This document shows positions 6,598-49,374 of a DNA stretch of 64,000 bases, in pieces. Every line of letters begins with the position of its first letter. Position 1 is the first letter of the stretch. Origin of the DNA: Kiritimatiellia bacterium (GTDB taxonomy: Bacteria > Verrucomicrobiota > Kiritimatiellia > SS1-B-03-39 > UBA6053). The notes under the pieces were generated by a model, which was not told where the DNA came from, searched no databases, and saw nothing but the letters and a program-made list of their open reading frames with translations. Position numbers and translations under genes: made by a program. The stretch is from the NCBI GenBank assembly GCA_046346795.1, contig JAXMHJ010000019.1, positions 1,305 to 65,304 on the forward strand, given 5' to 3'.

Positions 6598-6607
6598 CTC
6601 GCGGAGC

Positions 6608-11545: not shown

Positions 11546-11590
11546 ATGAAATCCCAACCTGACTCGACGCAACCACCGACGGAGCGCACG

Positions 11591-13315
11591 ATGCGTGGCT
11601 TCACCGCATGTTTTTCAGCATCTGCAGTCCTGGTGGCGTTCGCAGCGTCCGTCCAGGCGGCGGACTACACCTGGGGCGGCGGCACCGGCAACTGGTCTGA
11701 CGCCAACTGGAACCCGGGGCCCGTCTCCGGGCCGACCGCCGGATCCGACACGGCCACCATTAACACCGGCACCGTCTCCCTGAACGTCGGGGGCATGAAT
11801 GTCGGGTCGCTTACCCTCGGCACCGGCGGCACGTTCAACGCGTACAACTGGAACGGGGTCAACACCTACACGGGATACGGCAACCTGCTTTTGCAAGGGG
11901 GTGTCATCAACGGCATTGGCAACTACCACAATTGGGGCGCGGGAATCCTCGTGAACACGACCGTCTCCGGCTCGTCCGCTTCCACCCTCTCCGCCTCGTC
12001 GTTCTTCAATCTCAACGGAACCGGCGCCGGCAGTTCGGTGTTCACGGTGGCGGACGTGACCGGCGACGCGAATCCCGACCTCCATGTCACCGCGACCCTC
12101 AACGACGTTTCCGCGGATAACAGTTGGGTCGCCGCCGCGTTGGTGAAGGAAGGCCCGGGCACGATGAGACTCACCTCCGCCAACCTCTACACCGGCGGCA
12201 CCACCGTCAACCAGGGCGTGCTGCTGCTGGACGGAGGGAGCGGAGGATATGCCCGCATCAAGGAGGCGCTCACCGTCAACAGCGGCGCCAGCGTGACCTT
12301 CGCCAACGACGACGGCACCGGTCTGGGCTGGCAGGGTTTTTACAAAGTCACTGCGCTGACCATCAACGGCGGCACCGTCAGCAGCGACGGGGTCATGCAT
12401 GTCTGGGACTTTGCCGGCGGGCTCAATATGACCGGCGGCACCCTGCAAAGCAACCATGGCGTGAGTGACGCCGGCGGACCGCAGCTCGAATGGAACAAGG
12501 TGGATGTCACCACCCACGCCAGCGCGGACACCGCCACCATCGGCGGTCGCATCCGCCTCCGGGCCGACGGTGGATACACCGGCCTTTCGTTCAACGTGGC
12601 CGACGGCGCGGCCGCCGCCGACCTTCTGGTCAGCGCGGCGGTCACCGAGGCGTCCGGCGGTCTGGGCCTTGTCAAGAGCGGCGCGGGCACCCTGGTCCTC
12701 TCCGGCGCCAACTCCTACTCCGGCGCCACCACCATCAATGACGGGACCCTGCTGGTCAATGGCCACCACACCGGCGGCGGCCTGATCACCTTGTCCGCGA
12801 CCGCGACCTTCGGTGGCGGCGGACAGGCCGGGGATGTGGACGTCTGGACGGCCGGAACCCTGGCCCCCGGGGACCTGGAGCGGTCCGACAACTGGCTGCA
12901 GGTCGGTGCGCTGAGCCTGGGCGATCCCGGCGCGCAGTTGAATTTCGAGTTGGGTGCGCCCGACGACGGTGCCGCCCCGCTGGCGGTGAACGACCTGGTC
13001 CTCGCCGCCAGCCTGCCGTACCTGCGCGGCATCGTGAACGTGATTCCGCAGACCGGCTTCGCGTCCGCGCCCGCGGGCTCGAAGTGGCGGCTGATCGACC
13101 TGACCGCCGGAACCGTTCCGGCCGGAAGCGAGCTGACCCTGGCCCCCGCGCTCGCCGGCGGGTATTCGTTGCAGGCCGCGGAGGGCGACACCGCGGTCTA
13201 CCTGGTCGCGGTTCCGGAGGCCGGGACCGCCGGGCTCGTCGGGCTCGCACTGCTGATCCTGCGGCGCCTTCGCCGGGCGGGATCCATTGTCTTGGAGAAG
13301 GGGAGTATACCATGA
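11591..13315 (+). CDS. Autotransporter-associated beta-strand repeat protein with PEP-CTERM anchor (paralogue 1)
   Basis: It has a signal peptide (MRGFTACFSASAVLVAFAASVQAA) followed by ADYTWGGGTGNWSDANWNPGP. Repeats of the type G.GTL.LSGANSYSGATTINDGTLLVNG follow. The C-terminal VPEAGTAGLVGLALLILRRLRR is a PEP-CTERM-like sorting signal. An alternative start at 11546 is possible. Confidence 0.8.
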   Translation: MRGFTACFSASAVLVAFAASVQAADYTWGGGTGNWSDANWNPGPVSGPTAGSDTATINTGTVSLNVGGMNVGSLTLGTGGTFNAYNWNGVNTYTGYGNLLLQGGVINGIGNYHNWGAGILVNTTVSGSSASTLSASSFFNLNGTGAGSSVFTVADVTGDANPDLHVTATLNDVSADNSWVAAALVKEGPGTMRLTSANLYTGGTTVNQGVLLLDGGSGGYARIKEALTVNSGASVTFANDDGTGLGWQGFYKVTALTINGGTVSSDGVMHVWDFAGGLNMTGGTLQSNHGVSDAGGPQLEWNKVDVTTHASADTATIGGRIRLRADGGYTGLSFNVADGAAAADLLVSAAVTEASGGLGLVKSGAGTLVLSGANSYSGATTINDGTLLVNGHHTGGGLITLSATATFGGGGQAGDVDVWTAGTLAPGDLERSDNWLQVGALSLGDPGAQLNFELGAPDDGAAPLAVNDLVLAASLPYLRGIVNVIPQTGFASAPAGSKWRLIDLTAGTVPAGSELTLAPALAGGYSLQAAEGDTAVYLVAVPEAGTAGLVGLALLILRRLRRAGSIVLEKGSIP

Positions 13316-16300
13316 GCACCCGCACCGCCATCATTCAACACATCCGCCGGACGCTCCTGGGCCTGGCCACACTGGCCGCCGGGGCCCGTGCCGCCGACTA
13401 CACCTGGGGCGGCGGAACCGGCAACTGGAGCGACGGCAACTGGACCCCCGGTCCTGTTTCCGGCCCCACGGCCGGTTCGGACACCGCCACCATCAACACC
13501 GGCACCGTGAATTTGAACGTCGGGGGGATGAACGTAGGCACCCTGACCCTCGGCTCGGGCGGCACCTTCAACGCCTACAACTGGAACGGCACCAACACCT
13601 ATACCGGATACGGCAACCTGGTCCTGCAGGGGGGCGTCCTCAACGGCAGCGGCAATTATCACAACTGGGGCGCGGGCATCCTTGCGAACACGACCGTCTC
13701 CGGCTCGTCCGCGTCCACCATCTCCGCCTCGTCGTTCTTCAACCTCAATGGAACCGGCGGAAGCAGTTCGGTGTTCACGGTTGCGGATGTGACCGGGGAC
13801 GCGAATCCGGATTTGAATGTTTCCGCCCAACTCTGGGACGTTTCGGCGGATACGAGCTGGGTGGCCGCCGCGCTGGTGAAAGAAGGCCCGGGCACCATGA
13901 GGATCACCGGCTATACCGGCTACACCGGCGGCACGACCATCAATGGCGGCACCCTCGATGTGTCGGGCGCGAACAGCGGCTGGGGATTGCTGCGGGGCTC
14001 CGTCACGGTGAACTCCGCGGGAACCCTGGCCATCACCGGGGGCGACGGCACCGGCTTCGGCTGGAACAGCCCGGTCACCAGCCTCACCATCAATGGCGGC
14101 ACGGTGAACGCTTCCGGCGGCGCGCATATCGGGTTCGGATCCTATATGACCGTGGGATTGAGCAACGGGGGGACCATCGCGGGCAGTTGGCAGTGGAACG
14201 GCGACAGTCTGCTCGGATTCAGTTCCTCGGGCGACAGCCAGAACACCATCAACGGCTCGCTCACGCTTCGTTCCGACGCGGGGCCAACCACACCTTCAAT
14301 GTCGCCAATGGCGGCTGCCGTCGATCTGCAGGTGAACGCCAACCTGTCCGACCAGTGGCCGGAAGCCTGGTGGGTCCCCCGCTCCGGGCTGGTCAAAACC
14401 GGAGCCGGCACGATGGTCCTGGCCGGGAACAACTCCTTTGACGGCCAGACCTACATCCAGGAGGGCACGTTGATCGCCGCCAGCAGCACCGCCCTGGGCT
14501 CCGGCGGGCACGACGGCAACACCATGAGCTGGATTGACGGAGCGACCCTCGCCCTGCAGGGCGGCGTCAGCCTCGACGAGCATTTCCACGTCTGGGGCTC
14601 CGGCGTGGGCGGCCTGGGCGCCGTGCGCAGCATCAGCGGCAACAACGCCCTGACCAACGCCCCCGGCGGGGGCGGTGGCTACGCGCTTCGCTCCAACGTC
14701 ACCGTGGGCGTGGACGCCGACACCCTCACCATGAGCGGATTCTACAACGGGGACGGCGGATCCTATGGCATCACCAAGATCGGCGCCGGGACCCTCGCCC
14801 TCACCGCGATCAGCGGTCACACCGGCGGAACGACGGTGAACGAGGAAACCTGCGGCTGGCCGCCTACGGCGGCTTCGGCCGGGTGGGCGGCGTGCTCACG
14901 GTCAACGCCGGCGCCACGCTGGAAACGACCGGCGACGGCACCGGCCTGGGGTACTGGGACCAGTTGACCACCCTGAACCTCAATGGCGCGACGGCCACCA
15001 GCACGGGCGCCATGCACATCTGGAACCTGACCGGTGGCATCAACATGACGGGCGCGATCCTGCAGAGCAACAATGGTGTTTCCGACGCCGCGTGGTTCGC
15101 AACTGGAATGGAACCGTTCCAATGTGAACGTGCTGGGCAGCGCTTCGACCTCCACCATCGTGGTCGGCATCCGCATGCGCGGGGATTATGGCTTCACCGG
15201 CATCCTCTTCGATGTCGCCAACGGGGCCGCTGCCACCGATCTGGCCATCACCGCCGCCATCAACGAGGCCTCGGGCGGCCTTGGCATCACCAAGAACGGG
15301 CCGGGCACCCTGGTCCTCTCCGGCAACAACAGTTTCTCCGGCCCCACGACCATCAACAACGGCCTGGTCATTTCCCAGAACGGCACCGGCATTCCCGACC
15401 TGTCCACGGTCGTCATGGCCGACTCCGCCACCGCCGCCCTCCAGATCACCCAGTCCGAGCAGGTCGGCCTGCTCTCCGGCGGCGGCGCCTCGGGCGGCAA
15501 CATCTCCGTCGCCTCCGGCTCCACCCTCAGCACCGGCGAAAACGGCGGCTCGGCCTCCTATGACGGCGTCCTCTCCGGCACCAACGTCTCCCTCCGCAAG
15601 CGCGGCGGCGGCACCCAGACCCTCACCGGCAACAACACCTTCTCCGGCGGCGTCGAGATCGCCGGCGGCACTCTCGCCGTGAGCTCCATCACCACCTCCG
15701 GCGTCGCCCAGCCCCTGGGCATGGGCTCCGGCCCCATCCTCTTTTCCGGCGCGGCCGGGCTGTCCATCACCGGGGTCGGGTCGTACACCAGCAGCCGCGG
15801 GCTGATCCTGGCCGACAACGCCAACACCCTCGGCGTCGCCGGTACGCTGACCCTCACCGGAACAATCACCGGGGGCGGCTCCTCCGGCAGCCTGACCAAG
15901 GCCGGGGCGGGCACCTTCAACCAGGCCGGCGCCGGGAGCTGGAACGGCAACGTCTTCATCACCCAGGGGACCTACAACGTCACCTCCACCGGCAGCATCG
16001 ACAACGCCGGGGTGGTCCAGCTCACCGGCGGGTCGACCTTCAACATCGACAGCGCCACCCAGGTGCGCGCCTCGGCGCTCCAGATCGACTCCGGCACCGT
16101 CAACCTCAACGCCGGCACCCTGCGCACCAACGGCATCAGCATGGCTTCGGGCACGGCGTTCAACTGGAGCGCGGGCACGCTGACCATGCAGACCGACGCC
16201 TCCGGCAACGCCGGGGTGACCGACCGGCGCGCGCCGGGCAGCTCGCTGAGCGCGCAGCCGGTGTACGAGGGGCGGATCATCGACGTCACCGGGGCCGCCG

Positions 16301-16788
16301 CAGGCATCACCGTGCCCAACGGCGGCGTGCTGGACCTCGGCCCCACCTACGGCAGCTACGGCATGCGCTACGACCAGCTCAAGATCGCCGGCTCGCTCAA
16401 CCTCTCCTCCGCCGGCAACACGCTGAACTTCGAGTTCAACCCCTTCTTCTTCCGCCCGAGCGTCTACGGCACCGACGGCGCGGGCACGCTGATCCTGGTG
16501 GACGCCGACAGCTTCACCGGGACGTTCGAGAACTTCACCGGCGTGCAGACCGACTTCATCGGCTTCACCGCCGCCCCCGGCAGCGGATCGGTGGTGGGCG
16601 TGCTGGGCACCTCGACGATCAACCCGCTGACCGACATCCCGGCGAACACCTACTACCTGGAGTACGAGACCGACACCGGCAACGTGCTCTTCCACTACCG
16701 CCTGACCGCGACCATCCCCGAGCCCGCCTCCGCCGGGCTGATGGTCGCCGGCACCCTGCTCCTGCGCGCCCTGCGCCGGCGCCGGTAA
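13312..16788 (+). pseudogene. Autotransporter-associated beta-strand repeat / PEP-CTERM protein (paralogue 2), with two frame breaks
   Basis: The start ATG at 13312 overlaps the stop of paralogue 1 (ATGA). The reading runs in ORF 13084..14967, then ORF 14883..15563, then ORF 15073..16788. Alignment to paralogue 3 places the frame breaks near 14845 (gaggaaacc where gagggaaacc is expected) and near 15090-15094. It ends with an intact PEP-CTERM signal (IPEPASAGLMVAGTLLLRALRRRR). Confidence 0.75.
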
Positions 16789-17154
16789 ACTCCGGATCGA
16801 TTTTCCCGCCTTCGAGACCGGGTCTGGAACCGCCGGGCCGGCCGCTCTGGCAGCCAGTTGAAAACTCCCGCGGCTCGCGCGACCATTCCGACAGGCTGCT
16901 CGGAGCCCTCCTCTCGGGTGCCTTGGGCCGTCGCCGCGCTTGAGCTGCTTCTTTGTGCCACGGCTCCCCGCCGCATTCATGCACTTCCCCGGCATTGCCG
17001 CCGAGGGACGGGACCGGAGGAAAACATAAATTATTTATCGCCATGTTGCAAAAACGGGGCGTCCTTCCGCAATTCTCACCGGCTGTGTATTCAGTTCTTT
17101 CGACACCAAGAATCCGTAATGAAAACGGACAACTGTAAAGGGGAGACCGCGACC

Positions 17155-20847: not shown

Positions 20848-23800
20848 ATGGTGTGGGAGTATCAGCCCATGAGCGCTTTTCACGGAGATACCCGTGATGA
20901 CGTTTTGCCGGTTTGTCGCGGGTGGTGGAGGGGGGATGGGTGGATCGCGGTGGCGGTCGCCCTCCAGCAGGGACTGACGGAACCGTCGGAGGCCCAGGAC
21001 GTCCGGGCGATCGTGCTGGAGAAGTCGATGACCAGCGCGCCGGCGGTGGGCGTGGCCCCGCTGTACGTCCACAAGCCGGACCTGCGGCGGCGGATCACCG
21101 ATCTGCTCGACCAGGAAAAGGCGATGGTGGCCGACGAGGCGGTGCTGGCGGGCATGCTGGCCGGGTACGACCGGCTGACCACTCCGTGGAAGCCGGGGGC
21201 GCCGAACGACTTCGACCCGTATGTGCTGCACCTGCTCTACCAGTTCCAGAAGGCCTGGTACTGGGCGGCGGACTTCTGGAGCCAGATCAACCCCGTCCTC
21301 GGCTACAACCCGCGTTACGCGGCCTACCGCGCGCTGCGCGAACTCAACCGGCGGATCAACCTGCTGGCGGTGGAGCGGCAGGCGCTGGAGAAGGCGTACT
21401 TCGACGAGCTGGCGGGCAGCGTGCCCACCAATTCCACCGCGAAGGCGGAGGTGTTCTTCGACCAGGGGGTGGAGGTGCGGCGCATGATCCTCAACGGCTT
21501 GCGCGAGCGCATCGACAGCCTGCGCCTGTACCGGCGGGAGACGCTGGAGGACTTCCTGCTGGCCCAGCGCCGGGCGCGCGACACGGGGGTGCCGTTCGCC
21601 GACACGGAGAAGGCGGTCGAATGGTGGAGCGTGGACAACAGCCGCCTGAACGCCCTGGAGGCGGAGCAGAAGGAGCTGAAGCAGCGCCAGCGGACCTGCC
21701 GCGAGACGATCGAAACCTACCGCGCGATGCTCAACGTCATGCCGACCGGGACGGTGCAGCGGACGCAGATCCAGATGCTGCTGGACGGCGCGGCCGCGGC
21801 GCTGAAGGCGGCGAAGACGCGCCAGGGCGAAGTGGACACCATGATCAAGAACGCGCAGCTCGGCTACGATCCGGACGCGACGGGGGGCAAGGTGGTGCGG
21901 CCGGAATCGGACTCCGCGGTGAAGTCGGCGGCGAACACCTTCTCGGTGCTCTACGCCGACCTGGCGACCCGCCGGCGCATCCTGCAGCGGGCGACGCGCG
22001 AGTCCACCCATCTGCACGGGGTGGCGGCGGAGTTTGACGCCTACCGGGAGAAGACGATGCTGGCGCTGCAGAAGCTGGGCGCGCTCCATCCCGACCGGGT
22101 GAAGGGGGCGTACGACCCCCTGCCGCTGCGCGGGGCGCTGCTGGACAAGGGCATCGTGAACCTCTCGACCGGCGAGATGAAGGTCGAGGACGGCATGGTG
22201 GCCGAGTCGGACTACTTCTATTCGGTGATGGACAAGTACAAAAATTTCGGCGGGAAGCTGCAGACCTCCAGCACGGCCGTGAACACGGAGCGGGTGGTGG
22301 TGGAGGGATTGCAGATCTCCATGGAGCTGTGCTCGGCGATGGCCTCGGCCTACGGCAACGTGGCGAACGACCTTATGGAGGCGGCGATGAATCTGCCCCT
22401 CGGCGTGGTTGGCGCCCGCATGAACATCGCGGGGGTCCTGGAGAAGACCTACAACAAGATCCGCAACAAGCGGATCGCCACCGACAAGAAGATCACCCTG
22501 CTGGCCGACGCGCTGGACCCGAAGATCGGCGCGGCGGAGTTGCGCCAGATGTTCGGGATCGGGCCGGCGCCCATCCCGCAGCCCTTCGCCATGTTCTACG
22601 CGTCGAACAGTCATTTCTTCCCGCCGGCCGAGCACACCAAGGCGCCGCTGGAGCTGTTCCGGCTGGATTCCGAGTTCTACCGGGGCACGGAGGGGGGGCT
22701 GCGCGGCATCCTGATTTCCGAGCACTCCAGCACCACCAATCTGCTGGCGGAGGCGTACGTGATCGCCTGCGAGAAGGCGGCCTACACCCTGCGCGAGCTG
22801 ACGCTGACGGCCTACAGCCGGAAGGGTCTCGACGCCACCACCGGCGGCTTCAACTGGAAACTGCTGACGGCTCCGGTGCAACTGGTCATCCAGACCTGGG
22901 AGGCGCTGGCCATCCATGTGATCGGCCGGGACCGCGACTACGTGGCCCACAACGCCAAGCGCGCGGCGGAGCACGCGGCCATGCTGGACCTCTATCCGCA
23001 CCTGGTGAAGGCCGGGTTTGACGCCCGGAAGGTGGCGGAATGGATCGGGGATCCGGCCATGCACCCGCACCTGCGCCGGCACTGGGAGCTGTTGCGCGAG
23101 AGTCCGGAGTACCGGCGGTTCTGGTTCCGGGCCGAGAAGATCCACCAGGAGGAGAAGATCGAGGAGGCGACGGACCGCCTGAAGAAGGCCATGGACGCCT
23201 TCCGCGAGCGGGACCTCGGCGGCGGGCTGCCGCCCCACATCGAGGACCTGGGCAACCGCGTGCAGGCCATCGGGCTGCTGGGGGAATCGGAGGCCTTCCT
23301 GGCCCCCGCGCATTACCAGGACGCGATCGACAAGGCGTACCAGTTCAGCTTCGAGGACACGGTGGACTCACTGCTCACCGCCAACGAGCTGGACCCCTCC
23401 GTGGTCTCCATGGCGGACATCCGGCGGATCGAGGAGGGTCTGTTCGCCCTGCAGACGCGCAAGGCCAGCATCGACCTGGTGGTCTCCATCACCGACGAGA
23501 TCGTCTGGGACTATCTGCTGGGCAAGATCACCGAGGGCGTGATGGGCCGCATCGACGGGTTCCTCGGCCTGGAGAAGCCGGGGGAACTGGCCAAGGCGAT
23601 GTCGGTGAAGGACATGGCGCTGGCGGCGGGGGCGAAGGTGAAGGAGACCCTGGTCAACAAGTTCAACCCCTTCGCCTCCAGCATCCCGATCGGCGACCTG
23701 TACACCAAGGGGGTGATCAACTTCATGTCCACCCACGGGGTCAAGATGTTCGTCAAAAACCAGAAGAACATGCTCCGCGACACCGTGCTGGTGCAGTCGA

Positions 23801-35705: not shown

Positions 35706-38700
35706 GGCACGGTGTCCGGTCGCCTGTTCGGCGCGCGCAGCGACGCGGTCCAGTGGCGCGACGAGTGGCTTCAGGAAACGTGGATCACCGATCCCCTGCT
35801 GCGGCCGCGCCGGCGCATGGACAAGCTCACCGGCCTGGCCGGCTACGAGAGCCTGGGCCACTGGGTGCTGCCCGCGGACGCCGGCTGGCGGGTGGCGCTC
35901 CGCGGCTGGTTTGCGGAGCGGGCGCAGCCGGTGCTGGCGTTCCGGGCCGTCGGCAAGGGACAGCTCATCCTGAGCACCCAGCCCCTGGGCATCAGTCGGA
36001 ACCTGGAGGACGCCCGCTGGCAGCTCCATTCGTTCCTGGGCGTCACCAACCGGCTGGAGCAGGTGGCCGTGGTGGACCGTTCCGCGGGCCTGAGCGCCGG
36101 GGGCGCGGAGTTCTTGAACTTCGAGCAGCAGCCGGGCACGTACTACCTCGGGGTCGAGGAGCGTTATGAGTCGCAGCCGCAGTCGCGCATGCTGTTGAGG
36201 CGTTCCCTGCGCGTCGCGGACCGGCCGCTGGAGCCCGACGACACGCCCGCGCTGGCGAAGCGGGTTCCCCCGGGCGTCGAATCCGCCGCGAACCTGCTGC
36301 CCCGCGACGACCGGGACTGGCGGCGGATCCAGGTGGACGAGCCCGGCGTGCTGCAGGTGCAGGTGGGCAACGTTCCGGACAACCTCGATCCCGTGCTGGA
36401 GATCGGGCGGGCCGCGCCGCCGGCCGCGCCGCTGCGCGTGCTCTATCTGGAGGGCAACCCCGCGAACGGGATCGACGAGAGCCGCTACGAGGGCGTGGCC
36501 TTCACGCGGATCGATGCCGCGGCCCCCGGGGCGACCAACATTCTCGCCCGGCTCGACGAGCTCCAGATGCTGGTCATCGCCTCGCTGTCCGACGCCGCCC
36601 AGTTCGGATTGAACCGGAAGGCGGCCCACGAGAGGATCCGGGCCTTCGCGGAGCGCGGGGGAAAGGTGCTCGTGTGCGCGCCGCAGGGCGTCAGCTTCGC
36701 CGAGAACAGTCCCGCGATGGGCGGGGTGCTCGAGGCGTGGAGCAGCGAATGGGACGGGGGCGGCTGGCGGGCCTTGAACCTGACGGACGGGTTCGCCCCG
36801 CCCGGGCAGCACGGTCGCGGCTGGTGCTGCGGGAACGGCGCGAAATTCCCGCACGCCCTCACCTGGTCCTTCGGCGGCGTGGCGCGCGCGATCGACCGCA
36901 TGGTGGTCCACAACAACACCAACACGCAGGGGGCCCGGGCGCGCAGCCTGGAGCTGCTGGCGGGGGCCGACACCAACTCCCTGCGGCGGGTGGGCACCTT
37001 CACCGCCGCCGACACCGACGAGCGCCAGGAGTTTTCCTTCCCCGCCGTGAACTGCCGGGTGGTGCGCCTGCTGGTGAACACCAATTACGGCCACGCGGTG
37101 GAGACGCAGATGGGCGAGGTCCAGTTTTTCGGGCCGGAGTCCATCCCGGGCTTCCTCGGCATCCGCAACGACGGGGTTGCCTCGGGCGGAAATCTCGACA
37201 CCGTCCATCCGCTGCACTGGATCGTGCGCGGCCGGGCGGCCGGGGACGTCAACGGCTGGCCGGACTACGGGCGCGACGGCCGCTGGCTGGATCCGGAGGG
37301 CGCGGGCTTCCTGGACCTCTTCCCGGAGCACGGCGACCCCGCCCGCCGGACCGCCACCGCCCTGCGGCAGACCGGCGGCGGCTGGATCGCGGTGGACGCC
37401 CAGCGCCTGACCAGCCCCGCCAACCAGGCCGCCGCGGCCTGGAAGTGGCAGAACTATCTCGATGTCGCCTCCGGCCGGATCGGGGAATTCGACCGCACGC
37501 AGGACGGCGCGGACGGCGGCACCGAGACGGTGGTGCTGCCGACGCGCGGCGGGGAGGATTTCCTGGTCGGGATCTCCGACCAGGTCGCCAAGGACAACCT
37601 GGGCAACCAGTCCCCCGCGCCCTGGGTCTTCTCGAGCCTGTTCCGTCCCGCGGGCCTGGCGAACGAACCCAACGACACCTGGGAGTCGGCCACGCCCATG
37701 GTCCCGGGCGGAACCGTCCGCGACAATTTCTTCCCGGAGAACGACCACGACTGGTTCCGGTTCCCGGTGGAGCAGTCCGCCGATGTCGATGTCCGCCTCC
37801 TGGACGTGCCCTCCAGCGTGGATGCCGGGGTGGACATCTACCGGTACGAGGCCGGGATCGCGCCGCAGCGCGTTCTCTATCTGACCTGCCGCACCGACAC
37901 CGACCTGGACCGGCGGGACTACGGCCCCTTGCCGCTCCGTTTCACGCGGGTCGACGCCGGCACGCCCGGGGAGGCCTCCGCGTGGGATCTGCTGGACTCG
38001 TCCACGGTGGCCATCCTCGAAGGACTGGACGACCGCCATCGTTTCGGCATGGACCTGCCGGAGACCTACCGGAAGATCCAGCGGTTCGTGGAGCAGGGCG
38101 GCACCTTCATCCTGCTCGCGCCCGGCGCCTACTCCTACAGTGCGATCGGCCGGGGCGGCGGGGCGAAGCTGGCGGGCGCCTCCGAATCCATGAACGACTC
38201 CTACTGGGGGCCGCAAAACCTGGTGGACGGATACTGGGAGGAGGGGAACGGCCGGGGCGGCTGGTCCTCGCGCGAGGGAAGTCCCTTCCCGCACCGGGTC
38301 GTGTTCGAGACCGCGGGACCGACCCCGCCGACCCTCGACCGGCTGGTCGTTCACAACACCGCGCAGCGGCCCGAGCGGGCCGTGCGGGAGCTGGAAATCC
38401 AGTTCGCCGACCGGAACGAGGACGGCGCGTTCAAGTCGGCGGGCCGGTTCCAGTGCACCAACAGCACGGTGCGGCAGGAGTTCTCCTTCCCGCCCGCCGC
38501 ACCCCGGTTCATCAAGGTGCTCATGCTCTCGAACCACGGCGACAAGGAGGAGACGCAGTGCGGGGAGATCGAGTTTTTCGGACCCGGCGGGATGGAGGCG
38601 CCCTTCGGCGTCCCCCACTTCCGGGGCCTCGAGTCCGGTTCGCGGATCGCCGCCACCGATCCCGCGCACTGGATCGCCGCCCGGCGGGAGCAGGACGGGA

Positions 38701-40180
38701 ACGAATTCTGGTACGCGCGCTGGAACGGCCACTTCACCGGCTGGCGGGAGCAGGGTTTCCGCATGGTGTTCGCCAGCGGCGCCAACACCAACGACTTTGC
38801 GGTCACCCTGGCCCGGCCGGCCGGCAAGGGCTGGCTCGTGCTGGACAGCCAGGATCTGGGCAATCCCGAGAACGCGCAGCGCAACGAGTGGAAGCTGCTC
38901 AACTATTTCCGCATGCCGTCGACCCGGGTCGGACGCTACAACCAGACCACCCGCGACAACGCCCCGGGAGGCGCGGAGATCTTCCGGTTCCCGGCCTCGC
39001 CCGGGCCGTACTACGCCCATGTGACCGGCCTGCCCGCCGGCGCGTTCTCGGCGCAGCATTACCGGCTGTCGCTCGCGGCGCACCCCGTGGAGCGGGCCTT
39101 CGAGCCCAACGACACCGCCGCGCAGGCGACGCCGCTGCAGCCGGGCGTGGTCCACCGCGTCACCTTTTTCCCCGAGCGGGACGCGGACTGGTTCAAGGTG
39201 GACCTGCCCGCGGGCGCGCCGCTGGTCTTCGAGACGCTGCGCATCCCGGCGCGGATGTCCCTCCGCGTCCTGATCTATGCGGGAACCAACACGCAGGAAA
39301 CGGTCCAGACCTTCGGCTACCGCGGTCCGGGCGTGCCCGTCATGGGCCGGTTCGACCCGAAGGCCGGCGGGGTCCACTACCTGCGCCTGGTCGATGAGAA
39401 CGGCGAACGGCAGCCGTGCCTGGAGCCGCTGGAATTCCTGGTCCGCTACGCCGGCAAGGCCGCGCCGACCCCGCTGCGCGTTCTCGCGACCGCCCCGCCG
39501 GCGGAAAGCGCCGGCGTCTCGAGCAACGCCAGCTTCCGGGTGATGTTGTCGGCGCCGCTCGCGGCCGACGCCGTTCGCGCCGGCGCGCTGGCGGCGAAGG
39601 GTTCGCTTTCCGGCGAGGTGGCCGGCCGGGTGTCGGGCGATCCCGCCGCCGGCACCCTGGTCTTCACCCCGGAGAAGCCGTTCCGCCCCGGGGAGACCGC
39701 CACGATCACCCTGCCGGCGGGCCTCCGCGACGCCGCGGGCAACGCCCTGCCCGCCGCGTATTCGTGGCCAGTGGTGATCCGGACCGACGCGGCGCGGCAG
39801 ACGGAATGCGTCTTCCGCATCGAGCTGCAACCGCCCTCGCCGCTTCCACCCGGGTCCGCGCGCGTCACAATTTCACCATCCGTTCCGCTCCGCGCCCCGC
39901 CGGAAATCACCGCCGTCACCGACGCCGGCCGGAATCTCGCCCTCTCCGCGCCGGTGAAGGACGCCGCCGGCAACTGGTCGTGCACGATGACGGTGCCCGC
40001 GGGCCTTCCGCGCCAGTCGGTGCTGTTCGCCTGCACCGCCCTCGACCAGCAGGGCCGGCGCGCCCGCAAGATCGCGCAGGGCGCGCGCTGCGAGGTGGAC
40101 GGACAGCCCCCGCCCGCGCTGGAGGGCGTAACCGCACGGCCCGGACGCAACGGCAAGGCGGTGCTGTCGTGGCCGCGGCC
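35706..40180 (+). CDS. Intact in-frame segment of cistron D: split-PPC / GATase1-like / discoidin-like super-modules, a terminal PPC and the first Ig-like units
   Basis: This is part of ORF 34305..40688. It contains:
- EPND-type PPC openings (LEPDDTPALAKR at 36232, NEPNDTWESATP at 37663, FEPNDTAAQATP at 39100)
- two F5/8-type-C-like stretches (FPHALTWSF...IDRMVVHNNTN...RSLELL...QEFSFPAVNCRVVRLLV...GEVQFFGP, and the paralogous 38.2-38.6 kb copy). Confidence 0.75.
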
Positions 40181-40594
40181 GCTGGGGTGGACGACCTCGG
40201 CGGCTACGAGGTGTACCGGGCGGAGACGGCGGACGCGGCGCGAGGCCTCGACCCTGGCCGGCCGCCTCACCGGCGCCGACGTGCTCACCTGCGAGGATCC
40301 CACCCCGCGCGACGGCGTCTGGCACTACCGGGTCGCCCTGGTCGACCAGGCGGGCAACCGCGGCCCGCTCTCCGCGCCGGCGGCGGTGACGACCGACCGT
40401 GTTCCGCCGAAGGCCGCGGTGGCCGCGGTCACCGCCCGGGTCGTCCGCAAGCCCGGCATCGAACTCCAGTGGACCGCCGCGACCGGCGACGCCTTTGCGG
40501 GCTACAGTCTCTTCCGCGTACGGGAGGGCGAGCCCGCGCCAACGCCCGCCACCGCCGTGCCGTGGGCCGAGCCGGCGCCGGACGTGCTCTCGCC

Positions 40595-42035
40595 CAGATC
40601 GTGCCGGGGACGGAGGCCTACCGGTTCTACGTGGCCACGCACGACTCCGCGGGGAACATCGGCCCGCTCTCGCCGGCCGCGCCCGTAGTCCTCGACACCC
40701 GCCGCGCCCAGGCCCGCATCACCCTGGACAAGCCGTCCCCGCTCGGGGCGGGCACCTTCCAGGCGGCGATCCAGTTGAACGAACCCCTGGCCGCCGCGCT
40801 GGTCGCGAAGGTGCGCATGCCCGGCGGGGAGCTGCGCCCGCTGACCGTCCGCGCGCTCTCCGCGACCAACCAGACCGCGGCGCTGACCATCGCCGAGACC
40901 GACGCCGACGGATGGGCCTCGTTTGTGCTGGAGGGCGCGGACCGGTACGGCAACGAGGGGATCTACATCGAGGGCGGCGAGTCCTTCACCATCGACACCC
41001 GTCCGCCGCTGGCCAGCATCTATCCCAAGGCGGGCGCCTGGCTGGCCGCCGGGACCAACACGGTCACGGTGGATTTCAGCGAGGACGTGCGCGACCGGCC
41101 CGTGCTCCGCGCCGGCATGGCCGGGCGCACCAACGAGGTGTTTCTCGCCCGGGTGGAAGGGCGTCGCTATCTCGGGCTGGTCGTGCTGGACAAGTCGGCC
41201 CCCAACGGTCCGGTCGAGTTCTCCGTCGAGGCCGTTGATTCATTCGGTCACCGCGGCGGGCAGGTGGTGCGGGGCGGGCGCGCCGAGGTGGACACCGCCG
41301 CGCCGGACGCGCCCCTGTCCCCCGCGGCCGCGCCGGCGCCGGACAAGACCCTCGCGATCACCTGGCTGGCCTCCACGCGCGAACCGGTCGCCTTCTACCG
41401 GCTCTACGGCTTTTCCAACGCCACCACCCGCGTGCTGCTGCGGGATGAGATCCGCGACCTGCGCACGGCCATCAAGCCCGACCGGCCCGGCGCGCTGCTG
41501 CTCGCGGTCGCCGCCGTGGACCGCGCCGGGAATGAAAGCCCCCTCTCCGAGACGATCCGCGCCGAGTACGACCTCACGCCGCCGCCACCGCCCTCCGGGA
41601 CCACGGCGTCGGTGCTGCGCGACGGCCGGGTCAAGGTCGAATGGAAGGCCCCGGCTGTCGCCGAGCCCCTGTCCTACGCGGTCTGGCGCTCGACTACCCC
41701 GCTGGCCGGATCGACCAACCGGGTGAAGGTGGCCGTGACGAAGGACCTGTTCGTCCTCGACGAGCCGAAGACCTCCGCCGTCTTTCATTACGGGGTCACG
41801 GCCCTCGACGCGGCCGGCAACGAAAGCCCCTTCGCCGCCGCCGCGCCGCTGGATGTCGACACCCAGCCGCCGGTCGCAACCCTGACCCTGTCTCCGGTGG
41901 CGGGTACTCGTGCCTATTCCGAAAGCTACTATGTGCACTACGACATCCCGGTGCTGACCCTCCGGGAAGTCAACGTCACGCTCGACACCACCGAGCCGCT
42001 CGCGCAGAAGCCGCGGCTGCGCTACCGTTCCCGCG
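40595..42035 (+). CDS. Intact in-frame segment of cistron D: alternating Fn3-like and Ig-like units
   Basis: This is part of ORF 39416..43177. It shows recurrent YRFYVATHDSAGNIGPLS, LLLAVAAVDRAGNESPLS and FHYGVTALDAAGNESPFA motifs. These are separated by D(T)..PP.A.I......P units. Confidence 0.7.
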
Positions 42036-44571
42036 CGCACGATGTGCTCCGCCGACATTCCCCTCACCGGCCAGGGCATGCGCTGGAACGGCGCGCTGGT
42101 CCTCGGCGAGCGCGTGGACGACGGACTGCTGACCTTCCTGTTCGAGGGTGTCGATGGAAGGGCAACCGCGGGGTGGACATCGAGCGTGGCAAGGGCAACG
42201 TCGCCTGGGTGGACTCCGCACCGCCGGGGCCGGTCGCCACCCTCGTCGTGACGCCCCGTCCGCTGGGGAAGATGGAATGCGTCTGGCAGCCCCCGGCCGG
42301 GGAGGGCGCCGAGATCCTCACCTACTCGGTCTACCGTTCCCCGACGCCGTTCACCGCCGTCGCGGGCTCAAGCCGGTCGCCAGCCAGTTGCGCGAAACGT
42401 TTCACCGACAGTCCTCCTGCCGACGGCAACTACCACTACGCGGTGGTGGCCACGGATCAGGCGGGACTGAACGGCCGCCTGGCCGCAGCCGTGGCCGCGC
42501 GTTCCGACGGACGTCCGCCCGCGGCCCCGACGGGCGTGAAGGCCACCGTCCCCGAGAAATCCTGCTGGTCTGGGAAACCGCCGAAACCGAACCGCTCACC
42601 TGGCGCGTCCTCCGGGACGGCAAACCTCCTGGCGGACGGCCTCCTCGGGAAAATTCCACCGCGACATCCCCGAAAAGGACGGCGTGTACTCGTACACCGT
42701 CGTCGCGGTCGACGCTTGCCGCGGGCAACACCCAGGGGGGGCCTGGAATCGGAGGCGGTCAAGGTGGAGTTCACCAGCATGCTGCCGGCGGCCGACATCA
42801 CGATCGACCCGCCGTCTCCCGCCAAGTCCTCCTTCCGGGTGGTGGTGAAAACCCTCCTGTCCGCTCAAGGAAGCCCCGGACCTCTTCATCCGGTTCGCCC
42901 GCGGCGAGCCGGCCCGCGTGCCGCTCGCATCCGCCGACGGAAAGAAGGGCGAATGGGTGGGCAGCGTGGTGGTCGACGCCGGGACGCCGGACGGCCCCGC
43001 GGAGTTCCTGTTCCAGGCGGTCTCCGCCGAAGGCAAGCGCGGCGCCCGCATCCGCTCCGGGGCGCGGCTGGTGGTGGACACGCGGGCGCCGGCGGCCCGC
43101 ATCGCGCTGGATCCGCCCGCTCCTCTCCATTCGGGCCCGGTGCGCGTCACCCTGATCCCCGACGAGCCGCTTGGTGAAATGCCGGCCCTCCGCTCACCCT
43201 TCCGGGCGCGCCCCCGCGCGAGCTGGCACTGGCCGCGACGGGCGCGGTTTACGTCGCCCGTTTCGAGATCACCGACGCCGATACCGACGGCATCGCCACC
43301 TTCTCCTTCTCCGGCATCGACGCGGCCGGCAACGAGGGCGCGGCGCTTGCCGGGTCCACGTTTGTGATCGACCAACGTCCCCAAGCCGCCCGCGGGACTC
43401 AAGGCGGCGGCCGTGAAGGACGGGCAGGTCGAGCTGGGGCTGGCAGCCGCCCGTCTACGCCGCCAACGAGGTGTCGGACCAGCTCGCCGGCTTCCGGCCC
43501 GCCGCCTCCAGCCTCCGGTGACCACGCTCAAGGGTCTGACCCTGCTTGAAGCCCTCGTCACCCGCAACCCGTTCCAGACGCGGGTGCCGGCCGATGGTAA
43601 AACCTTCTTCGCCGTCACCCTGCGGGACACCGCCGGCCTGGAAAGCGCGCCTTCGAGAACGCCTCCGCGGTGATCGACCGGGTGCCGCCTGCCGCGCCCG
43701 CGCCTGCCCCTGCCGGTCGTGAAGGACGGGGTTGTCACCGTCACCTGGGACGCCGTGGACGACGCCGCGACGTACGCGGTCGAGATGCAGGCCCCGTCGG
43801 ACCCCGACTACCGGCCCGTCGCGGAAGGGTTGACCCGCGGGACGTCATGTCTTCCGTCCGCTGGAAGGGGGGCGCTACGCCATCCGGGTGACCGCCCTCG
43901 ACGCGCTGGGCCACCGCAGTCCTCCCATTCCCGCGGTTTCGAGCAGACCGCCCCGCTGGCCGCGATCCGCCCCGCCTCCAATCCGGTCGGCGCGGGCCGG
44001 CACAAGGAGACGACCCGTCCCCTGGTCGCCGCCGCGCCGAAACTCGCCTTCACCGACTCGCCGGAAAAGCGCAGCCCGTCACCACGACCGGCGAAGGGAA
44101 GAGTTGGACGGGCGAACTGGTGGTGGACGCGTCACTCGCCGCCGGGGAGGACATTTCAGCTACGAGGAACCACGCGCGACCAGGGAACTCCGGTGACGGC
44201 ACCGGCATCCTCGCGGGGGCGGCGCTGGCGCTGGACTTCACCCCCGCCCGCCGCCGCGATCATCTTGAGCGGTTCCGAGCCGGTGGTCGGCGAGAAGGCC
44301 CTGCTGAGCGCCGGCCGTCATGCGTTCCTGCTGCGCGCGACCGGAGCTGTTAGAGGCCGCCCCGGTTCTCACGTTCACCCCGCGCGGCGCGGCGGCGGAG
44401 CGCCCCGAGTTGATCCAGACCCGCCCCCGCGGAATGGACCGGGGTCATCCTCGTCACCACCAACGCCCTCCGGCGCGGCGGTCTTCGAGCTGGAGGCGGT
44501 GACCGGCAGGGCAACAGCGACGCCGTCACGGAGAACCGGGTCGTGGATATCGACGTCGATCCGCCCGCGCG

Positions 44572-46060
44572 TCGCCCAGATCCGCGCCGCGCCCCTGCCG
44601 GGCGGCCGCTGCCGCGTCGAGTGGACCGCCCCCTACGGCAGGGACGGCCGGCCGGACGCCCGGGCCAACACGTTCAACCTCTACCGCGCCGGGAGCGAGA
44701 TCGTGGACGCGACCGGGCTGGAGGTGTACCGGCGTCTCCAGCGCGTGCTGGGCTATGTCGACACCCCCACGGCCGACCGGACCTACCACTACGCCGTCGC
44801 CGCGGTGGACGAGGCGGGCAACGTCGGGCCGCTCTCCGGCAGCGCGAGCGCGGTGATCGACAAGACCGCCCCCGGGGTGCCCATGGACGTTCGCGCCACC
44901 GTGATGAGCAACGGCGTGGTCCATCTCGCCTGGACGCCTCCACCCGGGGAAAAGCCGCTGTTCTACAACGTGTACCTGGAGCAGAATCCCATCCTGGCCA
45001 CCGCCGGCCTGAGCCCCATGAACCGTGGCGTCACCTGGACCGAGATCTACGGCACGCCCAATCACGATGGGAAATACTATTTCGCGGTCACCGCCGTGGA
45101 CGCGGCGCTCAACGAGAGCGGCGCCAGTGAAAACGCCGGGATCGACTACAAGGCCATCCCGCCGATCGCCCGGTTCTTCCTGGAGCCGGACATCTGGCTG
45201 ACCGACGGGTCGTATCCCCTGCGGCTGGAGGTCACCAAGAAGCTGGTCGAATCCCCCTCCGTCGAGATCAACTCGGAGTCCGGCCGGCGCATCCCGCTGA
45301 GCTTTTCCGGCGGGGACGACCGGTGGAGCACCACGCTCAAGATCGACCCCTCCTTCCCCGAGGGCACCTATGGATTCATCTTCCGCGGGAGGGACGAGGC
45401 CGGCACCGTCGGGGACGAGATCGCCCGCGGCCCGCTGTTCCACGTGGACCGCACCGCGCCGCTGCCGCCCTCGGGACTGGTGGTGGAGCCCGACACCCGC
45501 GGCACGCCGGGCGCGGTGAAGCTCTCCTGGCACACGCCCAAGCGCGAGGGGCAGACCACCGAGGTGCCCATGCGGTACCACGTGTTCCGCAGTTCGCAGC
45601 CAATCACCTCCACGCGGGGCCTGCGTCCGGTTCAGGTGGTCGGGGTGAAGTTCGCCAACCTTGACGACTACGGTTGCCTCGACGTCCCGCCCGGCAACGG
45701 CACGTTCCACTACGCCGTCACCTCCCTCGATCTGGCCGGCAACGAATCCGCCCCCGGCGACAGCGCCCCCGTGTCGGTGCAGTCGGACGCCCCCCGCGGC
45801 TCCTTCTCCCTCTACCGCGTGCGGGGAACGGAGATCGTGCCCGCGAGCACGGACGCGCAGGGCGTGCCGGTGATCGGGCGCGGCAAGGCGCGGGTCCGGC
45901 TGGCCACCGCCGTCCCCCTCAAGGCCGCGCCCGCGGTCACCTGGCGGATCAAGCAGGAGGGGCGGAAGGCCCTCCCCGTCGTCATGCAGGGCAAGGGTTC
46001 CGAATGGTGGGGCGAGTTCGAGGTCGCGGAGAACCTGGAATCCGGCGAGGAGGCGGTGTT
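44572..46060 (+). CDS. Intact in-frame segment of cistron D: Fn3-like / Ig-like units
   Basis: This is part of ORF 43719..46157. It contains the motifs YHYAVAAVDEAGNVGPLS, YYFAVTAVDAALNESGAS and FHYAVTSLDLAGNESAPG. Confidence 0.7.
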
Positions 46061-46229
46061 CGCCTCTCGGCCACCGCCGCGACCGGGGCGGCCGGCAGCC
46101 ACATCAGCAAGGGCGAAACCTTCCTCGTCGACACGACCGGTTCGGCGGGGTGGATGATCGTCTCGTCCACCTTCAAGATGAAGGTCAACGTGAAGGCGCG
46201 CCTTGCAGACGCCTTCGTCCGCGCCTGCA

Positions 46230-49200
46230 GGAGGTCCGCCTGGTCGCTCCGGAGGAACTGGCCGCTCCCCCCGCGCTCTCCCTCGCGCTGGGCGGAGGCA
46301 AGCCGGTCGCCATTCCGCTGACGGGCTACGGTCGGTACTGGTCCGGCTTCATGGAAATCCCGGGCGGGGCCGACGGGATCGAGGGCCGCTTCACGTTCTC
46401 CGGGGTCGACCTGGCGGGCAACCCCTCCACGCAGATCGCGAAGGTCCGCTACGAGCACGAGGACGACGGCGAATTTCCCACCCCGCGCCGCACCGCCAGC
46501 TACGCCACCACCGGGGGGCGCTTCACCACTGACACCCGCCCGCCCGAGATGCCCTCCGGCCTGCAGTTGGAGATGCGCAAGCTCGGCGTGGCCGTGATCC
46601 AGTGGAAGGAGCCCGGGGGCGATCCGAACTCCTACAACCTCTACCGGTCGCTCACCCCCATCACGGACACCGCCGGCCTCGTCCCGGTGCGGCGCGACAT
46701 CTACGCCACCGTCATCGTGGACGACCCGCCCGTGGACGGGAACTACTACTACGCGGTGACCTCGGTCGACTTCGCCGGCAACGAAAGCGCGGTCTACGAA
46801 TCGAAAAGCGTCTTCATCGACACCATCAAGCCCGAGTTGAAGATCAAGGCCGCGCCCCTCGGGGACGACTTTGTCATCCTGCTCGACGAGGACGCGCCGG
46901 AAGAGCTTTCCCTCACCCTGCGCTTCCCCGGGCAGCGCGACATCCAGGTCGAGCTGGGCGGGTCCTCCGGCGAGCTGGCCGAATACAAGGTGGTCCGCGG
47001 CCCGAACGGAGAGCGGCGCGTGGTGCTGCCGCAGCAGGTCGGCTTCTTCAACGGGAAGGTGGAGGTCATCGTGCACAGTCCCGACCCCGAGGGGAACCTG
47101 GTCGAGGAGAAGACCGAGCTGGAGATGAAGCAGATCGCGGCGGCCACCGGGGGAACGGTCGGCAGCGCCGACGAGCAGGTGCAGCTCATCATCCCGCCCG
47201 GCCTGCAGCCGGTCATTCCCGAAGGCCCCGGCAAGGGGAAGAGGGTGGGGGGGTATGACAACATCTTCTTCATCAAGTACGCCAACATCCCGAAGGAGAA
47301 GCCCGCCGTCGTCGAGGGGGAAAAGCGCAGGCGCGAGGACGTCGACCCGCTTCCGCCCGGCCTGGAGATCATCGGCGTGCCGTATGTCATCGAGATGAAC
47401 CAGCCCCCCGAGGAGCCGCTGGAGTTGAAGGGCTCGGCCACCCAGGCCGACCTCTCGCAGCTCAAGCCGCTCATGGCCAAGCTGAAGATGAAGGTGCCCG
47501 CGCAGTATTCCGACGCGGTCGAGGATCCCGACTACCTCAAGTCACGCCTGCGCGTCATGCAGTGGGTCCCCGTCTCCGCCAACCAGAAGGCCGGCCGGTG
47601 GGAGCCGGTGCCCGATGTCGAGATCGATCCGAAGACCGACGAGTTCATCGTCCCCGTCAACCGCATCACCACCTACGTGATCATCGCGGAGCGCACCCCG
47701 CCCGCCGTGCGCGAGCTGCAGCCCGGCCGCGACGCGACCATCACCGAATTCCAGCCGGTCATTTCCTGTCTGCTGGTGGACAAGGGCACCGGACTGGCCG
47801 TCGGGGCCGAGAACCGGATCGTGCTCACCCTCGACGGGCGCAAGATTCCCGAAAAGCAGCTCGAGATCTCCCGGGGCGACCCCACCGAGGTTCGCGTCTC
47901 CTTCCGCCCGGCGGAAAAGCTCGCCCCGGGCCGCCACACGGCGGGCATCCGCGCCGAGGACGTGGTCGAGAACGTGGCCGACGTGAAATGGCAGTTCCTG
48001 ATCGACAACAAGCCCCCCGTGCTGCTCGGCACGCGGCCCGGCGAGGGCGAGCGGCTGCCCGTGGCGCGGCCGATGATCCAGGTGAGCGCGTCCGACGAGG
48101 GGGGCGTCAACGCGGCGGCCTGCAGGATCTCGGTCGACGGGGCGGACCTGCCGGCGGCCTCGGTCGGCTTCGACGCCTCCGCCGGGCTGCTCACGGGCTT
48201 CCTCCCCTGGGATCTCGCCAGCGGGCTGCATGAGGCGCGCGTAGAGGTGGTCGACGCCGGCGGGCTGTCGACGGTCAAGACCTGGACGTTCGCGGTGGAC
48301 CTGGAGGCCCCCGTGCTCGCCGCCCGCGTGCCCGAGACCGGGACCCGGGTCGATCCCGCCGACACCCGCATCGCCTTCGTGCTCAGCGACGGACTCGGCC
48401 AGCCCCAGGTGCTCGACTTCCGCATCGACGGGCGGAAGATCCTGCCGGCGCGCTGGCGGCTCGCCCCCGGTTTTTCGTTCGATCCCGCCAAGAACGTCGC
48501 CGCCTTCGCCGCCGGCACGCTGCCCTCGGGCGAGCACGAGATCTCGCTGGTGGTGTCGGACGACCTGGGCAACACGGCGGTGCAAAGCTGGACCTTCAAG
48601 AGCGACGTCCCGGCCGCGCTGGGCGTTCGCGAGCGGGACTTCGCGCCCCCGGCCCTGGTCGTTTCCAACAAGATCAGCCGGTCGGTGGCGGTGTTGCCGG
48701 TGATCCCGCCCGGGAGCGGGGGTTCCCCGGTGCAGCCGCCCGGACCCGGGGCGGACCGACCCGCCGTTTTCACGCCGGTCTCGGAGGCGGATCTCAAGAC
48801 CGCGCAGCGCGTCCGCAAGCTTTTCGCCGATGCCGGGTACGAGGAAGGGCGTGGGAATCTGGAAAAGGCGAGGGCGCTTTTTGCGGAATGCATGTCCGTC
48901 CACTCGAATCAGGTCGTGGCCGCCCGCCTTGCCGCCCTCGAAAGCCGAATGACCTCCGCGGAGCTTAACCCCGGGGCGTCCGCCGCCGAGCCCGGCGAGA
49001 TGGAGCTGCTCAAGGCCCGGCGGGCCCGGGCGGAGGGCGGTTATCTGGAGGCCAAGGGCGACCTGGCCGGCGCCCTCGCCGCGTATGAACAGAGCCTGTC
49101 CTTCGTACCCGACCCGCGGCTGCGCCAGCGGGTGGCCGAACTGCGGAAGAAGCAGGGAACCACGGCCCCGCCAAACCCGCCCGTCGTCGCGCCGCCAGCC

Positions 49201-49374
49201 GTGTCCCCCGACGTCATGCTGGCCGCCCGTCGCGCCCGCGCCGAGGCCGCCTACCTCGAGGTCAAGGGCGAGTACCGCAAGGCCCTGGAGGCCTACGAGA
49301 AGGCGCAGAAGCTCTATTTCGATCCCGCGCTCGTTCCGGTGATGGACAAGGTGCGGAAGAAGATGGAGCCCTGA
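46230..49374 (+). CDS. Intact C-terminal segment of cistron D: Fn3/Ig-like units, SbsA/CopC-like Ig units and three terminal TPR-like helical repeats
   Basis: This is part of ORF 46150..49374; the frame join to the upstream segment is approximately at 46225-46235. Its content includes YYYAVTSVDFAGNESAV, three units of the type P.V..(L/T).P..G.......P.I...(L/A)...G.G(V/L)......I.L.(L/V)DG, and the C-terminal repeats ARRARAEGGYLEAKGDLAGALAAYEQS and ARRARAEAAYLEVKGEYRKALEAYEKA. Confidence 0.75.

Follow-up and report, generated by a model that had tools for sequence, protein, structure and literature searches.

A conserved three-gene cassette in Kiritimatiellia and Planctomycetota that may encode giant exported proteins of the cell envelope

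A block of very long reading frames at positions 20848-49374 of the analyzed window is read here, with moderate confidence, as a single instance of a conserved cassette of three genes that had gone unannotated in the Planctomycetes-Verrucomicrobia-Chlamydiae (PVC) superphylum; its products would be three exported giants forming an envelope or surface assembly. The window is a 64,000-nt stretch of a Kiritimatiellia metagenome-assembled genome (MAG) of ~70% G+C (positions 1,305 to 65,304 of the forward strand of contig JAXMHJ010000019.1, GenBank assembly GCA_046346795.1). Its reading frames are designated A, B, C and D, of which B and C appear to be parts of a single gene, BC, that is split in this copy, and D a giant gene in fragments. 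The role of the cassette is most likely at the cell envelope or surface. PVC bacteria are noted for giant genes without a known role, and the trio supplies a concrete gene set for the cell biology of the PVC envelope.

For this analysis a cassette was defined as A-like, fused BC-like and D-like genes co-located on one strand. Such genes occur together in at least eight distinct loci besides the window, from Kiritimatiellia and Planctomycetota MAGs and from metagenomes, with identities of 22-43% among the cassette homologs and ~8,000-10,500 residues in total. The original prediction for this region had named loss of synteny in related genomes as grounds for its own rejection, and the three genes proved to be adjacent in these loci; in the window all three are present, BC split and D fragmented. 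The three families are neighbors in every locus examined, in one of two gene orders: A-BC-D (L003, L006, L007-L009 and L010/L013, the last from a Planctomycetota MAG) and D-A-BC, with a 126-aa open reading frame (ORF) between D and A and a 349-aa ORF after BC (L012, L015 and L016-L018). Because the families stay linked through this permutation of gene order at such identities, sequence comparison makes a strong case that the trio is a functional module, and one that recurs and can be tested. In the homologous loci the D-like genes are intact (4,684-6,717 aa), BC is always a single gene (1,874-1,981 aa) and the intergenic spacers measure 19-318 nt. The flanks of the cassette are unrelated in every locus, and no accessory gene is conserved across the loci, the 126-aa and 349-aa ORFs being shared within the D-A-BC clade only. 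In L016 the former (9618-9998) abuts the start of the A-like gene and the latter (20542-21591) follows BC, as they do in L017 and L018; neither has a Pfam match or a counterpart in the window. A 78-aa ORF lies between A and BC in L003, and a gene for an IS200-type Y1 transposase (IS, insertion sequence) lies between the BC-like and D-like genes of L006 (21799-22251).

Two of the cassette components fall outside any annotated family. We searched Pfam (whole proteins and sub-segments, at E ≤ 10), NCBIfam and PADLOC (A, B and C, at E ≤ 0.1), and made word-indexed homolog searches of a database of 5.8 × 10⁹ proteins, in which A and B retrieved only themselves. Protein A has no match in the three family libraries, and the B part, including its conserved domain of ~500 aa, has none in these or in the PDB; profiles of the A family, the A core and the B part gave coiled-coil noise or nothing when run against the PDB. 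The earlier judgment that no function could be assigned is upheld for the conserved unit. The search that did recover homologs of A was an exhaustive HMMER search with residues 617-1816 as the query, which identified 18 representatives at 26-35% identity, many of them 1,600-1,900 aa long.

Table 1 Features of the cassette copy in the window, with coordinates in window numbering.
Feature	Coordinates	Strand	Description
Gene A	20848..26298	+	1816 aa; undescribed family of ~1,600-1,900 aa, mostly helical, probably exported
NTase-like core of A	24730..24990	+	Predicted helix, strand leading to TGS, strand SDLDYTV, helix, strand FDVSFMVD
B	26295..28820	+	N-terminal 841 aa of ancestral BC; signal peptide, poly-Pro linker, β-rich domains, ~500-aa conserved domain
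G5 run, BC frame break	28796..28800	+	With a sixth G, B and C would be joined in frame; compared with fused L003, L006 and L007
C	28817..32143	+	C-terminal 1108 aa of ancestral BC; ~270-aa region without known family, three FlgD_ig, then Big-type Ig
D 5′ part	32197..35701	+	Probable TTG start with signal peptide, PPC domains, GATase1-like module
D longest intact segment	35712..40688	+	1658 aa; repeated GATase1-like and discoidin/SUN-like modules, PPC, Big_5
D middle part	40586..46157	+	Ig/Fn3-type array; frame 2 to ~42.6 kb, frame 0 from 44540 to 46157
D 3′ part, frame 1	46195..49374	+	Big_13 and sub-threshold He_PIG-like Ig, three TPR-like helical repeats, stop

The original prediction described the block as four cistrons chained by overlapping stop/start tetranucleotides, which it took as a mark of translational coupling. 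The tetranucleotides are present (ATGA at 26295-26298 and 28817-28820, GTGA at 32140-32143), as are the open frames of A, B and C with the boundaries proposed for them (Table 1), each with a G+C content at third codon positions (GC3) of ~0.93. The ancestral genes nevertheless number three, as B and C are fused in every homolog. B is 40% identical to residues 27-764 of the 1885-aa BC protein of L003, and C is 43% identical over its full length to residues 775-1884 of the same protein and 42-44% identical to the proteins of L006, L007 and L010. At the junction, homology leaves the B frame (…FLQWYLDRK) and enters the C frame upstream of its ATG (GGSLAEWMTW…), and one G added to the run at 28796-28800 restores WYLDRKGGSLAEWMTW. 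Since this single nucleotide recovers the fused reading seen in the homologs, the B/C overlap is, on this comparison, a by-product of a frameshift within one ancestral gene. Only the A/B overlap is plausibly a real coupled junction: AGGAGG lies 5 nt before it, and its ATG is followed by a clear signal peptide. This junction is specific to the lineage, as gaps take its place in the homologous loci. With spacers of 19-318 nt in those loci, 4-nt overlaps are not a trait of the family, and two of the three in the window are artifacts of frame disruption; the overlaps therefore neither all join separate genes nor persist in relatives, as a coupled operon would lead one to expect.

Both the signal peptide and the poly-Pro stretch claimed for B were seen, and its ~500-aa domain, with the motifs WEGELSTGG, YHNxNEL, GETGY and RGADN, contains many invariant columns in a four-sequence alignment; a single-sequence AlphaFold2 (AF2) model of B (predicted local distance difference test score, pLDDT, 35) was unusable. 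The FlgD-type and Ig-like repeats proposed for C were recovered by Pfam as FlgD_ig, Big_13, Big_7 and CHU_C-like domains, with CHU_C-like and CarboxypepD_reg-like parts accompanying the three FlgD_ig domains and five Big-type Ig domains in all. Signal peptides were found in the BC homologs, and the exported BC protein is read as including β-sandwich domains.

D, which had been taken for a single reading unit, is by its coding pattern one gene of ~6,000 codons broken by at least 15 frame changes. No frame stays open from 32.1 to 49.4 kb, and the position of maximal GC3 moves between frames; GC3 phase and colinear tblastn alignment with intact homologs place the 15 or more switches between 32.2 and 46.3 kb. 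Long stretches stay intact in two places only, at 35712-40688 (the 1658-aa segment) and at 46150-49374 (1074 aa). The 5′ part is read in frames 1, 2, 0, 1 and 2, with frameshifts near 32500, 33250, 33782 and 34900-35250, and residues 44-1017 of the L007 D protein align with it colinearly by tblastn through frames 1, 2, 0 and 1 over 32320-35211 and then through frames 2 and 0. P0004, a partial D homolog and the only real homolog of the 1658-aa segment in the protein database (40% identity), also aligns colinearly to the window while changing frames. At 40640-40730 the reading of an Ig domain runs on in frame 2 past the frame-0 stop at 40688, and between 42.6 and 44.5 kb, where many short frame changes occur, the sensible reading shifts every 100-300 nt (three-frame reading of 42900-44700). 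The layout of the middle part also draws on tblastn with the C-terminus of the L012 D protein. The 3′ part is 37-41% identical to the D C-termini of L012 and L015.

The start of D is likely TTG 32197 and not the GTG at 32140 that forms the third overlap, because the TTG start reads MRVVFRRARRAAPACLAVLLL, followed by EPND of the first PPC domain, and so matches the signal-peptide-plus-PPC starts of the D homologs. In a second assembly (L001; GCA_046346815.1, contig JAXMHK010000019.1), which is 99.3% identical to window positions 20821-38819, a difference of 2 nt at 32185 leaves GTG 32140 in a different frame from the TTG; the two agree only in the window assembly. The D homologs carry signal peptides, and their repeated modules give sub-threshold matches to ThuA, GLMA_2nd and DUF4350, all of which we take to have a GATase1-like fold. 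D also contains F5/8-type-C or Sad1-UNC lectin-like domains, Big_5, Big_13, Fn3 arrays and three C-terminal TPR-like repeats. Pfam matches in the D region are to PPC, F5_F8_type_C_2/Sad1_UNC, Big_5 and Big_13, in agreement with the kind of content proposed earlier; TPR_2 matches weakly and He_PIG, at 21.0 bits, falls below its cut-off of 24 bits. At the D 3′ end, a PEP-CTERM tail, a transmembrane anchor and an RTX motif are all absent.

For the origin of these frame changes we lean towards assembly or consensus error for most indels, because they differ between two such closely matching assemblies and often fall in short G/C runs. An alignment of the window with L001 contains 29 gaps, with clusters at 20929-20987 and 32185-33554 and many of the gaps in such runs. 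In a place where the window is out of frame, L001 has MRVVFRRARRAAPACLAVLLL...EPNDT in one piece, and elsewhere the roles are exchanged, with PPC domains intact in one assembly or the other by turns; a mosaic that combines both recovers the reading frame. Each locally correct frame of D retains a GC3 of ~0.9, and in-frame stops have not accumulated. Also on the side of error, the PEP-CTERM tail of the neighboring gene at 16858-20730 has lost its frame too, whereas the housekeeping-type genes scanned in the window match Pfam normally. The alternative is that the copy in the window is a genuinely decaying pseudogene cluster, with a real G-run slip in BC and real frameshifts in D, in a family that is functional elsewhere; we regard this as a serious possibility, if a somewhat improbable one. 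Several observations speak for it and against error: the breaks at the G5 run, ~35710 and ~40600 are identical in the two separate assemblies and could therefore be real mutations, frame breaks persist over 33824-38819 despite zero differences between the assemblies there, and D has no near-identical DNA repeats that could explain local misassembly. Indels are moreover concentrated in surface-protein genes, the ordinary housekeeping-type genes scanned in the window having normal Pfam matches, and C without B would have no signal peptide. Long-term decay is nevertheless unsupported by local frames that are stop-free and GC3-rich throughout; the two assemblies carry different indels, and their mosaic yields intact PPC domains and improves the signal peptide of A, as is typical of consensus errors; and at least 15 independent frameshifts without in-frame nonsense or a large deletion would be unusual for real decay. 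Repeat collapse was considered as a cause of the indel clusters and set aside, the intragenic DNA repeats being only 60-76% identical. For annotators of high-G+C MAGs, the case is a caution that an indel-damaged giant gene can look like a chain of 4-nt overlaps or a series of medium-sized ORFs.

Conservation spans the full length of A, the helical N-terminal 1,200 aa being conserved as strongly as the putative enzyme core, and PDB profile searches revealed coiled-coil-like stretches. A had been described as intracellular. In an alignment of ten A homologs (A3), all ten have canonical Sec signal peptides (in P0007, after an over-extended start), and for this reason A is probably exported. The N-terminus of A in the window is itself degenerate and has no convincing signal peptide; L001 has a better h-region, which is out of frame. 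The true start and signal peptide of A, which fall in the indel-rich zone 20929-20987, are uncertain. With all three proteins predicted to be exported, the apparent paradox of an intracellular A coupled to extracytoplasmic partners disappears. At the C-terminus, the closer A homologs share a tail of the form P-h-R-x-A-A-COOH, ending in RAAA, RRAA, RLAA or RKAA (P0006, P0007, P0008, P0012 and P0013; L010 5380-5406) and in QEAA in the window (26260-26295). This tail follows a low-confidence, probably disordered segment and may be a C-terminal recognition or processing signal.

Motif and model together point to a possible nucleotidyltransferase (NTase) core in the C-terminal part of A. Among the residues invariant across 13 homologs are T-G-S-x-G, E-Y, S-D-x-D-x-T and M-x-D, which in A include G1311 and S1312 (TGS), D1329 and D1331 (SDLDYTV) and D1377 (FDVSFMVD). 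Members of the family invariably show hhhPTGS-x16-SDLDxThh, after which come a helix and a strand bearing MxD. When residues 1201-1816 were modeled by AF2 using a 16-sequence alignment (pLDDT 86; predicted template modeling score, pTM, 0.86), the predicted structure was helical except for a small α/β core with β-α-β-α-β order. TGSxG ends predicted strand 104-110 and begins predicted helix 111-115 (model numbering), consistent with an hG[GS] turn; SDxDxT lies on predicted strand 130-136, with 16 residues between GS and DxD where 9-13 are canonical; and D1377 of MxD, after F-[DE], lies on predicted strand 172-178, although the choice of metal ligand needs coordinates. This order of TGSxG, SDxDxT and MxD on strands 1 (with its turn), 2 and 3 is that of Pol-β-type NTases. 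A reading of DxDxT as a haloacid dehalogenase (HAD)-type motif was set aside, because DxD lies inside a strand with hydrophobic residues after it and a GS turn before it, a context that appears to fit the NTase pattern and not that of HAD proteins.

The fold and profile searches count against an NTase assignment. Foldseek, run with the whole 616-residue A model and not with a cropped core, gave a best match of E = 0.14 in the PDB, which is not significant, and listed its first NTase, DncV (4txz), at rank 50 with E = 1.4; the same model had no significant match in BFVD (best E ≥ 0.1). Neither PDB profile searches nor Pfam produced an NTase match of significance; in Pfam the sub-segments of A had cut the motif in two, and the whole-protein scan was likewise negative. 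None of A, B and C matched the PADLOC set, which includes CD-NTases. An enzyme that uses nucleoside triphosphates (NTPs) would also have no obvious substrate supply outside the cytoplasm. One of 16 A-family members has a sub-threshold Pfam match (E = 0.023) to MdcG, an NTase-fold family. The NTase-like core of the original prediction therefore stands as a conserved motif on a compatible predicted topology, and falls short as a fold confirmed by profile or fold search. A confidently modeled domain with an invariant candidate catalytic triad offers a site to mutate.

In the assembly that we favor, A (~1,800 aa), BC (~1,900 aa) and D (4,700-6,700 aa) would work together outside the cytoplasm. D and BC would form long Ig-stalked fibers that attach to glycans or other cells through heads of lectin type (discoidin, PPC), and A would be a helical partner contributing a metal-dependent, NTase-type enzymatic center. 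Weighing against this proposal, the adhesion or envelope role is drawn from domain types and no known homolog supports the link, and no route across the outer membrane is evident. A, BC and D have no sorting feature of a type I, V or IX secretion system (T1SS, T5SS, T9SS) or of PEP-CTERM, and none of them has a transmembrane anchor. A more specific version, which we hold to be unlikely, is a tripartite extracytoplasmic machine in which the two giant lectin/Ig fibers present or deliver the exported helical NTase-type A, which then modifies an envelope or extracellular polymer or acts in a contacted cell. If this version is correct, two new protein families would make up a surface-linked enzyme or effector system of a new class.

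A related alternative is that the cassette serves antagonism, predation or host interaction, with D and BC binding the target and A delivered as an NTase-type effector (AMPylase, cyclase or (p)ppApp-synthetase-like) that uses the NTPs of the target. A conserved NTP-enzyme-like triad in an exported protein would make most sense where NTPs exist, inside another cell, and lectin/Ig giants suit cell binding. Exported NTase-fold toxins are known, for example Tas1, an RSH-type effector of a type VI secretion system (T6SS). A preprint links giant genes to predation in other phyla (bioRxiv 10.1101/2023.11.21.568195). Family scans, however, detected no immunity gene, translocation or pore-forming domain, RHS/Tc, T6SS or contact-dependent inhibition (CDI) marker, and the flanks of the homologous loci share no such genes. 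The N-terminal 1,200 aa of A are as conserved as its core, unlike those of modular polymorphic toxins, and the NTase fold is unconfirmed by fold and profile searches. We consider this alternative quite unlikely.

We also asked whether a mobile element or genomic island carries the block between genomes as a unit. The window and L001 become homologous abruptly at 20821, 27 nt before the ATG of A; upstream of this point L001 (1-4521) has NOV_C, HNH/HNH_2 and rve integrase genes in place of PATR/PEP-CTERM genes; divergence is raised over 20829-21534, the first ~700 nt of A; and L006 carries the transposase gene noted above. An IS-mediated rearrangement or a chimeric contig would explain the 20821 breakpoint equally well, however, and the other loci are flanked by ordinary chromosomal genes that differ in every case. 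In agreement with the original prediction of no mobile-element gene in the block, an integrase, a transposase, a tRNA and a repeat boundary are absent in and beside it, and mobile cargo has a low probability in our estimation. The original picture of a four-cistron, translationally coupled machine of one huge intracellular helical NTase protein and three extracytoplasmic proteins is very improbable: it can point to the three overlaps and to the absence of a convincing signal peptide in window A, against which stand the single BC gene of every homolog, broken here by a 1-nt difference in a G run, a D that is not a single unit and probably starts at 32197, the lack of the overlaps in homologous loci and the signal peptides of the A homologs.

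Around the block, window positions 20731-21534 compared with L001 may mark a breakpoint left by recombination or an IS, or else a chimeric contig. The gene at 15073-16788 ends in an intact PEP-CTERM tail (…TIPEPASAGLMVAGTLLLRALRRRR), and that at 16858-20730 ends in a frame-shifted near-duplicate of it (…LTGDHPRARLRRADGRRTVLLRALRRRRG). Further upstream, ORFs 11201-13315 and 13084-14967 share 230 nt, the kind of overlap expected of one gene split by a frameshift. A 1002-aa HisKA_3 histidine kinase and a LuxR-type response regulator (7832-11481) lie directly upstream of the PATR/PEP-CTERM genes and are possible regulators of the surface-protein region. At 4470-7830, where the G+C content is 0.60-0.63, against ~0.70, and GC3 periodicity is nearly absent, the DNA carries an ankyrin-repeat ORF (5524-6147) and could be of foreign origin or a recent acquisition. 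Downstream on the minus strand (59302-60783 and 61107-61883), a 493-aa protein with a caspase/CHAT-type peptidase and a weak CsgG-like C-terminal region adjoins a lamin-tail-domain protein. Promoter and terminator scans gave counts within shuffle expectation.

A literature search returned general papers on giant genes and no description of the trio itself. Among known systems, Tc ABC toxins and the tripartite α-pore-forming toxins AhlABC and SmhABC are also three co-encoded large secreted proteins of which one is mainly helical, and ClyA, AhlC and SmhA are among the non-significant Foldseek matches of A (E 0.5-1.3, probability ~0.1). The cassette differs in having no TcA, TcB, TcC or RHS domains and in partners that are Ig/lectin arrays and not cocoon or pore components. 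With Pol-β NTases (minimal NTases, poly(A) polymerase, OAS/cGAS/CD-NTases and MdcG) the A core shares the order of a G[GS] turn, a predicted strand with DxD and a predicted strand with a candidate third carboxylate, and it departs from them in its longer GS-to-DxD spacing and in its position inside an 1,800-aa exported helical protein.

With large repetitive adhesin operons (RTX/Bap with T1SS, two-partner secretion, T9SS cargo), the cassette shares very long Ig proteins, carbohydrate- or cell-binding heads, FlgD_ig and CHU_C-like modules. It differs in that no ABC transporter, membrane fusion protein or TolC genes, TpsB genes or T9SS genes are adjacent in any locus, and its proteins carry Sec signal peptides at the N-terminus while lacking RTX and C-terminal sorting domains. 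In Pfam and NCBIfam scans, no ABC transporter, membrane fusion protein or outer-membrane protein of a T1SS matched in the block, its flanks or the homologous loci. The CHU_C and TIGR04131 matches are internal (residues 464-643 of the 1108 of C, the CHU_C-like part at 567-643), and the C-termini of C and D have no T9SS sorting domain. The PEP-CTERM tail of the exosortase system is absent from A and from the C-termini of C and D and present in the neighbor at 15073-16788.

Giant surface-protein genes are a known trait of Planctomycetes and other PVC bacteria (Kohn et al. 2016, PMC5177795). The cassette has in common with these the superphylum, genes of 5-20 kb, Sec-exported Ig-like/Fn3 arrays with lectin-type modules and a presumed surface role. 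It is set apart from them by three specific families, two of them unannotated, that are always linked in one of two gene orders, and by a partner, A, that is helical and has an enzyme-like motif in place of an Ig array.

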